The notes beneath the pieces were generated by a model. That model searched no databases. It was not told where the DNA came from and was given only the letters and a program-made list of their open reading frames with translations. DNA of 64,000 bases from Octopus vulgaris (lineage: Eukaryota). How positions within the stretch are numbered: position 1 is the stretch's first letter; every line of letters begins with the position of its first letter. A program made the position numbers and the translations under genes. Positions 14,761-53,745 of this stretch are shown here, in pieces. The stretch spans positions 73,842,001-73,906,000 of the forward strand of contig OX597831.1 of assembly GCA_951406725.2 (NCBI GenBank). The letters run 5' to 3'.

Positions 14761-14940
14761 GGGAGAGTTTACGAAAAAAACAAAAGACGAAGACAGGTGG
14801 TGTATAAAACAAACAGATATATTAGTATAACGCTCAGGAATAGAAAAAAGTCTTTTACGTTTCGAGCCTACGCTCTTCTATAGAAAGGGACACAGAAAAA
14901 ACAAGGAGCGAAACAAGGAGAGAAAAAAGGAGAGAAAAAT
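14761..14940 (-). mobile_element. Short hammerhead-bearing repeat, family H1 (Penelope pLTR-like)
   Basis: Homologous to 23741-23950, 53455-53745 and 62661-62890. Hammerhead-like fold at 14851-14888 on the minus strand (core CTATAGA). Flanked by (TA)n. Confidence 0.8.
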
Positions 14941-14967
14941 ATGTATGTATATATATATATATATATA

Positions 14968-16590
14968 ATATTAAATTAGAGATAAAACCACTATTAGGCA
15001 AATCAAACAATGAAAAACTTAAGCCAATACATAAAATTAATTAATTTATATTATTTTAAATATATATCAAAAGTATTAAAAGTTTAATAAAAGATAATGA
15101 GTAAAACACTACGATCGTTTCATGGCTGTCCAATTCGTAATAATTCGAGTTATGGTTACAGTTAATCTTCAGGTAATTGAAATATCTAAAATATAATCAG
15201 AAATATTTAAGCAATATTTTTAAGATATAAATAATATAATAATTTTACTTAAAATAAACTCTATTATCAAACTAGAAACATAGAACTTAACATTTATGAT
15301 TATATCAAAATCGACTATAATGTTAAATATCAATTTTAATTTATAAGGTAGGAAACCCACCCATAATCTAATATCGGTATTAGTCTATATCTAATTACAT
15401 AAATATTTAAAAATGACTAATATATATAAATTATCAATGAAAATATATAAATGTATATAAATATTATAATTAAGATCTAAAATAATCTCTATAAATAAAT
15501 GTATATGCACATATAATAAAAACCTAATAAATTTAATTTTTCATATTTAAAGATGAAATAGCTAATTTCAAAATACAAATAAACAAACTTAAACGAACTT
15601 TCGGAAATGTTATGTAAAATACTTTTAGAAATAATCAATTCGTAGTAATATAGTATCGAATAAATACTATAAATATAATTATCAATGGGAATAACTAGCG
15701 AATATCAATTTAAAGAAATAACTAAGTTATGCTATTAAATTAGACATGGCCTGGACCAATCTTTAGTCGAAACATATCTAAGTTTATCAAAGTGTATCTA
15801 ATTTAATTATAAATTTAAAACTACAATTAATACTATTAAAACATGTATATACAAAAGCCTAACTTAATACACCTCGTATGCTTGCTATCAAATAACAAAT
15901 CTATCGCTAAGTAGTAACTTACGAATAAACTTAAATTTAATATCTAATAATATAGAAAATTACGATAATTAGATCATTACATAAACAACGATATTTACAT
16001 AAGGAGAATATTATTACTCCAAAGACTTATACAATATTAAAATTTACAATTTGAAGATCTTAAATAAATACATATTTATCTTAGCGAGGTTTAGCAATGA
16101 ACTAAAATTTTGAATCGGAAAACGTCTTTACAGCGTTTATAAGAATACTCGTGGAATTACGTTATTAGCAACAAAAAAAAAAGAATAAATTGTTGAAGAA
16201 TTTATTACGCGTGAGGAACCTACGTTTTATTAATGATTGTGAATGGGAAAATTATTTGTTTATCATTGTAAATAGAATGAAGTCACAAATAAAGAATAAA
16301 ATCTCTCTATACTATAATATTTATTAATAAAAAAATAACTATGATAAATGAAACTTTATACAAAATAAATTAAATGATTTAAATGATTAAAAACCACTAA
16401 TTATTAAATATATTCTAAAAATCTTATAAGGTTAATAAATATATAAAAAATTATTTATATAGTAACCCCTCAACATACTATAAAGTCTTTCCCATGCCTT
16501 TATAATTATAAGCTAAAATTAGTGATCATAACCAAATCTATAAATACTTATCAAAATTTGTAGTATAACTATACATACGTATACATAAAT
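14968..16590 (-). mobile_element. Extremely AT-rich element remnant with a hammerhead motif (probable Penelope-like derivative)
   Basis: About 1.6 kb of complex AT-rich DNA between TA-rich microsatellites, with a hammerhead motif near its left end. No readable ORF. Confidence 0.5.
15103..15177 (-). ncRNA. Type-I hammerhead ribozyme motif, canonical core
   Basis: Minus strand: attac CTGAAGA t-taactgt...acagcca-t GAAAC GATC GTA gtgtt. Canonical CUGANGA and GAAA, palindromic stem III, GUA site. Stems I and II are imperfect. Confidence 0.65.
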
Positions 16591-17927
16591 ATATAAAAAA
16601 TATACATACATATACATATATATATACATATATATATACATATATATATACATATATATATACATATATATATATATACATACATATACATATACATACA
16701 CATACACATATACACATACATACACACATACATACATATACATATATACAAACATATATACACACACATACACACATACACATATGCACACTCATACATA
16801 CATGTACATACATACAATACTCAATATATACACTTACACCTATATATACACACCCACACACATACACATAAATAAATGTATATACATATACATATATATA
16901 CACACACATCATCATATACACATATATACATACACACACAACCACATATATCATATAATAAATACATATATAAATGTCTATATATATATGTCTATATATA
17001 TATATATATATATATACATACACACACACAGATGCACATATATATATAGATTATAATTGAGGGTATCTAAGATACCACCATCTCTTAGAAACCCTCAATT
17101 ATAATTTTGATAATTATTACCAATAAAGTTTTTCTTCCCATGCTGACCACTTGATATGATGTCGTTATTTCAAAATATCGGTCTTATATATATATATATA
17201 TATATATATATATATATATATATAAGGATAAGACCGATATATGTTTGGAAAGCAAGCTTCGTACCAGGCAGCCATTCCTGCGCTTATACATACTACGATG
17301 CGCATCACTCATATGTATGTATTGAAAAAGTGGTTGTTCGTGCACATACATGTTCAGATACCTGTATCCATTCACACGAATGTTTCTCTGTGCGCGTGTT
17401 TATACCTGGGCGTGTGCAATACAGTTGTATTTTCCACCTGTATTTATATCCGGATAACGGATTGCGCCACGACAATACAAATGCGACTTTGAGATTCCTC
17501 ACAATATCTCTCCCGCACACGCTCTTCATTCTCTCACACACACACATTCTCTCTTTCTTTCCTTATCTCTGCTTGTCGTTCACACACACGCACACACACA
17601 CACACACTCACGCATACAGATACACAAACACACACGCATACACACACAAACACAAACACGCATACACATACACACACAAACACACACACACACGCACACA
17701 CACACAAACACAGACACGCATACACACACACACGCATACACACACACACGCACACACGCACACACACACACACACACACACGTGCAACCTTTTCTCCGTC
17801 ACTCCATCCCTCTGTTTCTATTCATTTTTGTCATGCTCGTATGTGCTTGTACCTTTCACAGGTGTTTTCAATACAGAGGACACTTTGGAGGCAGACAGAC
17901 AGACAGGCAAGCAGGTAGACAGAATGA

Positions 17928-18130
17928 CAGATAGATAGATAGATAGATAGATAGATAGATAGATAGATAGAGATAGATAGATAGATAGATAGATAGATAG
18001 ATAGATAGATAGATAGATAGATAGATAGATAGTTAGATAGATAGATAGATAGATAGATAGATAGATAGATAGATAGATAGATAGATAGATAGATAGAGAG
18101 ATAGATATATACATAGATAGATAGGTAGAT
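17928..18130. repeat. (GATA)n microsatellite
   Basis: Direct reading. Confidence 0.95.
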
Positions 18131-51799: not shown

Positions 51800-52207
51800 T
51801 TTATCTTTCATCTTTTACTTGTTTCAGTCATTTGACTGTTGCCATGCTGGAGCAGCACCTTGAAGATTCGAGCCAAGTGATTATTTTAAAAACCTGGTAC
51901 TTAATCTATCGGTCTCTTTGGCCGAACCACTAAATTACGAGGGCGTAAACACTCCAACACCGGTTGTCAAACAGTGTGGGAAACAAACACAAATACTCCC
52001 TCCCCACACATAAACTCCCCACAAACATTGTTTCACTCTCTCACACACACGACAGGCTTCTTTCAGTTTCCATCTACCAAATCCACTCGCAAGGCTTTAG
52101 TCACTTCGATGCTATAGCAGAAGACATTATCCCTTGGTGCCATGCAGTAAGACTGAACCAGGTACCATGTGTTTGGGAAACAAACTTCTTACCGTACAGC
52201 CACACCT
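51800..52207 (-). mobile_element. SINE family A, diverged, near full length
   Basis: Colinear with 2851-3245. Confidence 0.85.
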
Positions 52208-52531
52208 GTGTCCTTTATGTTAAATTTCTTTTTAAAGAGGATCCAAAAAGAGTGTCGTACGTGACATCGCACAAAACGACTTTTTTTGTCTTGGAGATTT
52301 TAACTGTTGATTTCTTAGAATTTCTCCAAAGCAGCATCAACAGCTTCATGGTGTTTAGTCACACTGACCTTCAAATTCCTGAAAAATGCCAATAAGTTTT
52401 GGGGACAACAATGTGAATTCTCATTCACCTGATGTGATTTCTGTGACAAAAATGGATGTGACATTTTCCAACACAAATATTTTCTGTCTTCGGAAATGTT
52501 TTGTTCTTTCAAAAAGTGGATCGAAAGAATT

Positions 52532-52682
52532 AGGCGCAAGTATGGCTGTGGTTAAGAAGCTCCACGTAGTTTCAGGTTCAATCGCACTACGGGGCACCTG
52601 GGGCAAGAGTCTTCTGCTATAGACGCGCATCGACCAATGCCATGTGAGTAAAATTGGTTAACGGAAACTGTGTAGAAGCCCA
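52532..52682 (+). mobile_element. SINE family A, diverged 5' half
   Basis: aggcgcaagtatggctgtggttaagaagc...cggaaactgtgtagaagccc. Confidence 0.7.
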
Positions 52683-53454
52683 ATATATATCTATGTATAT
52701 AGATGTGTGTGTGCGTGTGCATGTGCATGTACGTATGTATGTATGTATGTATCTCAACTCTCCCCCTCCTCATCTAACCCCCCTCTCCCCCAACTCATCT
52801 AACCTCCCCCGACCCCTACTTCTCTTCAGTCCTTCATCCTTTCACCCCTACTCCTCTTCCCTTCTTCCCTCTTCCTCTTTCCTCTTTCTCTCTGCTCCCT
52901 CACTCCCCTTCTCTCTCTCTCCCCCTCTCTCCTCCCCTCCTCTTCTCCTCTCCTTCCTTCTCCCCCTTCTCTCCCCTCCTCTTCTCCTCTCCTTCCTTCT
53001 CCCCCTTCCCCCTCCTCTTCTCCCCTTTCCTTCTCCCCCCTCACCCTCACCCTCATCTCATCTCCCCCTCCCCCTCCCCCCTCATCTCATCTCCCCCTCC
53101 CCTCTCTCCCCCTCATCTCTCCTCTCTCTCCCCCTCATCTCCCCTCTCTCTCCCCCTCTTCCCCTCTCCACCTCATCTCCTCTCTCTACACTACACCATA
53201 CGACTTTACACATCACCCCTCCTCCTCCCCTCTCCCCCTCCTCTCCTCTCTCTACACTACACCATACGACTTTACACATCACATCATATATACATACACA
53301 CGTCCAGACCTCTCATACGCACTAATACTCTCTCATACACACACACACTCTTATGTTGGGGCGAGGTCATTTAACCCTATTATCTCCCCTAATTTCGCTC
53401 TTGCGTCTCACGTTTGATCTTTGACTTCTGGCCGAAATCAGATCGCCATGTTGA

Positions 53455-53745
53455 TTCGCTAGCCTCTGCACGCATTTTTTTCTCTCCTTGTTTCTCTCCG
53501 TGTTTCTTTTCTGTGTATCTTTCTGTTGAAGAGCGTAGGCTCGAAACGTAAAAGACTTGTTTTATTTATATTCCTGAGCACCATACTAATACAATTGTTT
53601 GTTTGTATTCCACGTGCCTTCGTCTTTTGTTTATTTCCGTAAACCTGCCTTCGTCTTTTGTTTATTTCCGTAAACCTACCTTCGTCTTTTGTTTATTTCC
53701 GTAAACCTGCCTTCGTCTTTTGTTTATTTTCATAAAGCTTCCCCT
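53455..53745 (+). mobile_element. Hammerhead-bearing repeat, family H1, with a tandemly reiterated 3' end
   Basis: Hammerhead at 53518-53555. The unit ccttcgtcttttgtttattt occurs four times at 30-bp spacing before (TA)n. Confidence 0.85.
53518..53555 (+). ncRNA. Minimal type-I hammerhead-like motif, U6 variant
   Basis: TCTTT CTGTTGA A GAGC GTAG GCTC GAA ACGT A AAAGA: 5-bp stem I, 4-bp stem II, palindromic ACGT stem III, GUA site. Confidence 0.72.

Follow-up and report, generated by a model that had tools for sequence, protein, structure and literature searches.

Minimal hammerhead ribozymes of Penelope-like elements (PLEs) sit in the repeats of these elements and work weakly as dimers (Cervera and de la Pena 2014, PMC4209133). 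In the lizard Anolis, the hammerhead of the PAc Poseidon element cuts only with the element's protein, and a C3G/G8C double mutant partly restores cutting (PMC11167929); the rescue of G8C by C3G has also been reviewed (PMC8495972). Natural variants include U3-A8, A6C and a tolerated U10.1.U11.1 (Perreault et al. 2011, PMC3088659). Here we analysed a stretch of 64,000 nucleotides from Octopus vulgaris (GCA_951406725.2, contig OX597831.1, positions 73,842,001 to 73,906,000 of the forward strand; "the window" denotes this whole stretch), which lies in a 2.8-Gb, microsatellite-rich genome. The original prediction, made on this DNA before any database search, had reported four variant hammerhead cores, and all four 7-nt cores are present: A (15166-15172, minus), B (23499-23505), C (29366-29372) and D (53523-53529). 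What it missed is that the motifs are well-described PLE hammerheads, their density following transposon copy number. We conclude that the four motifs are very probably terminal-repeat remnants of four unrelated PLE families, and that each is predicted to be a minimal type I hammerhead, likely cutting the element's own RNA as a dimer.

Penelope-like elements behind the four motifs

All four motifs form the ends of dispersed repeats, and longer genomic copies of these repeats run into Penelope-type genes with reverse transcriptase (RT) and GIY-YIG domains. For family C, a 784-residue frame upstream of the motif in locus L121 holds RVT_1 and GIY-YIG in one frame, and in L141 the gene is flanked by two direct 423-bp repeats, 98.8% alike, with motif C in each. 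Two direct repeats were seen in this family only, and none for A, B or D. For family B, a GIY-YIG frame common to L127 and L128 lies about 0.9 kb upstream of the motif (L130 has an inverted 5' segment), and the L127 sequence that matches the window remnant lies after that frame. The RT of B was identified by profile matches to the RT of C and to a defence RT, and the 747-residue frame of B has 271 relatives at E<=1e-20. For family D, GIY-YIG frames occur in L180-L182 and L199; the protein matches that of C at 4e-46, and the GIY-YIG hit itself is weak. For family A, RT-like and GIY-YIG frames precede an AT-rich stretch of more than 2 kb, and L236 and L238 show this arrangement without a break over 4.5 kb; the GIY-YIG hit is at the cut-off, and the copies have staggered 5' ends. 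The best protein hit of one element carries the name Octopus vulgaris.

Since identity among the proteins of the four families does not exceed 22-33%, and this over parts of their length, or BLAST gives no match at all, we regard the families as four separate PLE lineages. Judged by their motifs, C and D may be Neptune-like and A Nematis-like; B is unassigned. Some other assignments were rejected. The GIY-YIG frame beside motif A in L109 and L131 was considered as the gene of A and belongs to another element; a Naiad identity, considered for A in view of its long spacer, was dropped because the endonuclease of A is C-terminal. A non-LTR (long terminal repeat) retrozyme does not fit either, since the copies are dispersed rather than arranged in head-to-tail tandem units and the longer ones reach the genes described above. 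In addition, the L141 copy of the C element carries a 243-residue upstream frame (6996-7724, minus) directly after the 5' hammerhead, which is separate from the RT frame in that copy.

In the motifs themselves, each core is followed by GAA and a palindrome beginning at A15.1, with lengths of 8, 6, 6 and 4 nt in A, B, C and D. The prediction that every core is followed by a stem II, GAAA and a palindromic stem III therefore held for the palindromes in all four families, with one boundary redrawn: the stem III palindrome of C is ACATGT (6 nt), and AACATGTT, as first noted, takes in A14 and N17. It did not hold for stem II in the window copy of A, which starts with U.U, U-A, A.C and A.C, so that only the distal 4-bp helix forms; one of these mismatches is a departure from the commonest family A sequence. 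The stems that close the core are listed in Table 1 for B, C and D; those of A are poor, and worse in the window copy. One additional base stands between A9 and G10.1 in B and D. Compared with the minimal type I consensus, the core letters of A fit, those of B and C fit with a compensated 3-8 pair, and D departs at A6, where it has U.

When positions 3 and 8 were left open, a strict hammerhead descriptor matched the window 4 times, compared with a mean of 0.1 (maximum 1) in 30 local dinucleotide shuffles of it. These hits are B, the inverted twin of B, D and a second D copy, whereas C passes only a looser setting (stem I of 3 bp) and A fails. An Rfam scan was uninformative: the 150 matches listed, out of 601, included no hammerhead and consisted mostly of microsatellite-driven miRNA matches.

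This layout agrees closely with the minimal hammerheads of PLEs in PMC4209133, which likewise lie in the flanking repeats of elements with RT and GIY-YIG, show an extra base after A9, G10.1-C11.1, a short stem I and a palindromic helix III, occur as many families per genome, mostly in lone truncated copies and inverted pairs, and include U3-A8 families, there with about 1,300 hits in Schistosoma mansoni. It differs in two respects: none of the 56 PLE representatives in Fig. S3 of that paper has G3-C8 or U6, and in family A here stem II and its loop are longer (the core strands lie 45 nt apart) and the palindrome has 8 nt. L143 and L010 hold further motifs that resemble family A: their stem II loops are very long, setting the core strands about 45-50 nt apart, and their palindromes measure 8 nt. 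Separately, positions 59748-59784 of the window (plus) show a CUGANGA core and a GAAA-CGU-C end with hardly any stem II, which may be the decayed trace of a fifth family.

Table 1 Remnants of Penelope-like elements and hammerhead-like motifs in the window, with predicted cut sites.
Feature	Position	Strand	Characters	Match
Family A PLE remnant	14940..16988	-	5'-truncated; about 2 kb of AT-rich 3' non-coding region	94% to L236, there after RT-like and GIY-YIG frames
Family A hammerhead-like motif	15105..15180	-	C3-G8; long stem II (damaged here); 8-nt palindrome; predicted cut after 15110 (GUA)	
Family B PLE remnant	23330..23728		inverted pair (23330-23474 minus, 23479-23728 plus) in TA microsatellite	98-99% to L127
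Family B hammerhead-like motif	23492..23541	+	G3-C8; extra G after A9; stem II 5 bp; AATATT; stem I 7 bp; predicted cut after 23534 (UUU)	
Inverted twin of B motif	23410..23459	-	G3.U8 (single change)	
Third B copy, decayed	29575..29810	-	other subfamily; G3-C8 kept; A9 and GAAA strand changed	
Family C PLE remnant	29289..29492	+	part of 3' repeat	94% to each of the 423-bp direct repeats in the full element L141
Family C hammerhead-like motif	29360..29408	+	U3-A8; stem II 5 bp; ACATGT; stem I 3 bp; predicted cut after 29402 (GUU)	
Family D PLE remnant	52752..53680	+	3' non-coding region and repeat	86-87% to L182/L180 from directly past GIY-YIG frames
Family D hammerhead-like motif	53518..53555	+	C3-G8; U6; extra A after A9; stem II 4 bp; ACGT; stem I 5 bp; predicted cut after 53550 (GUA)	
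Second D copy	14851..14888	-	core damaged at G5	
Third D copy	23814..23852	+	U6 and C7; broken palindrome	
Fourth D copy	62759..62796	-	core damaged at G8	

Core states and the 3-8 pair

For the core states within families, we utilized exact patterns across the genome in which the tested positions were left free. Copy totals obtained in this way are lower bounds, the core states refer to the first 100 matches listed, and reversed control patterns gave 0 matches for each family in the same genome. With positions 3 and 8 free, B reached 6,024 matches, and 95 of the first 100 were G3-C8; the rest were 2 G3-U8 and one each of G3-G8, U3-C8 and C3-C8, with no C3-G8. The 162 matches of C were U3-A8 in 99 of the first 100, and the 441 matches to the 5' half of motif A were C3-G8 in 98. 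Family D gave 16,562 matches, with C3 in 99, U6 in 96 and G8 in 96 of the first 100 (D core positions 3, 6, 7 and 8 were tallied by hand); here N7 was spread over U (44), A (24), C (21) and G (11). U6 was also found in 30/30 D loci picked by their upstream sequence, and in contigs of four runs with four organism labels no other letter reached 3% at positions 3 or 8 of B; these assembled contigs, which do not reveal RNA ends, showed no clustering of their ends along B. The variant cores are family states, not decay. As the original prediction required, B and C do not revert to C3-G8, and A, B and C each keep their own 3-8 pair. Part of the uniformity of the B core reflects youth, since the 30 best copies are 100% identical across 142 bases.

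The genome does contain the dense and diverse set of variants that had been proposed, with thousands of copies and, in the 1.05 Mb scanned below, 12 motif clusters. A search for CUGANGA would miss B, C and D, as had been suggested, but not A, whose core is plain CUGANGA. Of the 23,200 exact matches to the four families, counts based on that pattern leave out about 22,700. In L036 (minus, near 2611 of the reversed locus), a single hammerhead-like motif combines U3-A8 with U6 and seems to represent another U6 lineage.

Covariation at 3-8 had been claimed from the four window motifs, which are insufficient for it by themselves because two of them, A and D, are C3-G8 and the families are unrelated; the claim gains its support from wider tests. 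A relaxed scan covered 1.05 Mb of own-genome DNA that had been retrieved by queries with the four families; its 165 hits fell into 12 clusters (the loci overlap, and hit counts are not copy counts). The 3-8 pair was Watson-Crick in 12/12 clusters (7 C-G, 4 U-A, 1 G-C), while six shuffles gave 7 hits, 3 of them paired at 3-8. Given how the DNA was chosen, what counts is the eight clusters outside the four families (5 C-G and 3 U-A, with 1-3 hits each), about one of which may be chance. Position N7 is the one free position of the hammerhead core. Among 12 D copies that are 74-100% alike, N7 was the most variable motif column (top letter 33%), U6 was kept in 10, the stems were kept, and the flanks showed insertions and deletions.

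The relatives of B were sampled from 13 metagenome loci and one locus each from a viral (L255) and a genome (L256) collection; of the 13 metagenome loci together with one metagenome-assembled genome (MAG) contig, 9 include the 3' end of the gene. At the position of the B motif, C3-G8 was found in L243, the sister of B (support 91/93), and in L248, A3-U8 in L249 and L245 (grouped at 86/97), and U3-A8 in L242; L255 and L256 were either uninformative on the motif or without one. Judged by these comparisons of sequence, covariation at 3-8 holds and is best seen within the B lineage, on small numbers. The motif of L243 (4973-5020, C3-G8) also has U15.1-A16.1 in its palindrome, which we take to be a known low-activity variant. 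Nearly the whole 2.7 kb of L256, a contig titled as a bacterial MAG, is taken up by a PLE gene with 31% identity to B; the contig is probably animal DNA in the bin.

Predicted cleavage and competing explanations

A full element would be transcribed with its two repeats, and the palindromes of these repeats would pair to form stem III. Each RNA would then be cut after N17, probably slowly and helped by the element's protein as in the lizard PLE. Copying would begin near the 3' end and usually halt early, leaving the hammerhead repeat in thousands of places, mostly TA microsatellites; such repeats would be dense because the 3' repeat survives truncation and PLE copy number is high. Swaps at 3-8 are likely tolerated because the pair, rather than the identity of the bases, positions residue 8. 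Most lone genomic copies, including those of the window, are likely passive.

In predicted homodimer folds the palindromes pair in all four families, with self-duplex energies of -10.0 (A), -4.6 (C), -1.7 (D) and -0.2 kcal/mol (B). The suggestion that palindromes restrict the choice of dimer partner agrees with self-duplexes that beat cross-duplexes in every family, although the margin is small for B and D; these modelled energies fit partner choice but do not require it. Moreover, such a filter is unneeded, because each repeat would find its natural partner in the other repeat of its element. All cleavage of the A-D motifs is predicted. For measurable cutting as a dimer or with protein, we consider C a good candidate and B a somewhat favoured one, see the chances of A as even, and rate D, with its U6, slightly below that.

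Several observations weigh against cutting motifs in four PLE families. The RT of A has no Pfam and no PDB match and relies on motifs seen by eye and on Atlas neighbours. Stem II of this family usually opens with U.U and has an A.C mismatch, and its stem I is 3 bp. B combines a UUU cut triplet with the very weak duplex energy given above. Among its relatives, L245 is without stem I, L249 has weak stems and L242 has C at position 9, and 4/9 B-clade relatives (L244, L247, L250, L256) showed no motif, two of them ending soon after the gene. For D, U6 may be nearly silent: in a different hammerhead, A6C slows cutting about 10,000-fold at 0.3 mM Mg2+ (PMC7151607). Finally, the lizard PLE inserted in vitro without need for cutting, and no RNA-seq ends were observed at its cut site (PMC11167929), and Naiad PLEs thrive without canonical hammerheads (PMC8557442).

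These last three published results, together with the youth of B, also favour the alternative that the motifs are PLE-derived but some of them (D with U6, A with its poor stem II, perhaps B) no longer cut and are kept as a protein-binding fold, as an RT start site or by family youth. Double changes that preserve the 3-8 pair recur across lineages, however, and across D subfamilies N7 varies while positions 3, 6 and 8 and the stems stay, which is the pattern expected of a working core. We regard this alternative as unlikely, though it is the strongest of the competitors.

The original prediction had further supposed that intronic copies could cut host pre-mRNA. At such copy numbers many copies must presumably fall in introns somewhere in the genome, where they might cut or regulate pre-mRNA. 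Nothing in the window bears this out: 112 high-complexity frames of at least 50 residues contain no host-gene domain, only mariner transposase pieces (short exons could be missed), the lone copies have no partner, and most copies are damaged (A, the B twin, the third B and three D). The inverted B pair is predicted to fold into one hairpin of about 140 bp, with the intact B copy buried in it. An action on the host is thus highly improbable, and we did not uphold the claim. Chance look-alikes in AT-rich repeats, to which a loose descriptor does lend itself (16 window hits against a shuffle mean of 3, several in TA/TG repeats), are already refuted by the direct repeats of L141, the motifs of the B relatives and the relaxed scan, in line with the strict hits, the published position of such motifs in PLE repeats and the layout common to the four families and their relatives.

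The C3G/G8C core engineered in PAc is the pair that family B carries naturally; activity and protein help were measured there (PMC11167929) and are predicted for the present families. The position 6 variants of PMC3088659 and PMC7151607 are rare single sequences with C; here it is U6, and it predominates among at least 16,000 copies. We found no natural high-copy G3-C8 or U6 family in the literature searched, which did not extend to Lünse 2017 and Arkhipova 2017, where such families may be listed; searches of the same literature for natural A3-U8 and for octopus PLE ribozymes found no report. Lünse, Weinberg and Breaker (2017) reportedly describe small dimer-cleaving hammerhead variants of PLEs, by title the same motif class. 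The motif class and U3-A8 are already published, and the G3-C8 and U6 families may be unreported at such scale.

PLE hammerheads are weak cutters by themselves, and the single in vitro test of insertion could dispense with them. Young, very high-copy G3-C8 and U6 families offer test cases for whether selection acts on cutting and whether more cores are permitted when the protein helps. As a tentative and rather doubtful extension, the U6 family (more than 16,000 copies, the most abundant PLE sampled here) and the G3-C8 family (about 6,000) might both still cut since the protein relaxes the core rules, and one PLE lineage might have used all four Watson-Crick 3-8 pairs.

Other repeats in the window

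The commonest interspersed repeat of the window is SINE-like (short interspersed element) and about 400 bp long, with copies at 2841-3245, 51797-52207 and 54333-54755 and many shorter pieces; no hammerhead was found within it. Broken frames at 5111-6898 (minus) have no Pfam hit at 1e-4 and read, as we presume, like a hAT/ZBED-type DNA transposase. The 3' end of a long interspersed element (LINE) with a zf-RVT domain lies at 39181-39951 (plus). Two mariner (Mos1-like) transposase remnants with HTH_48, Transposase_1 and DDE_3 occupy 58633-59631 and 61459-62296 (plus).

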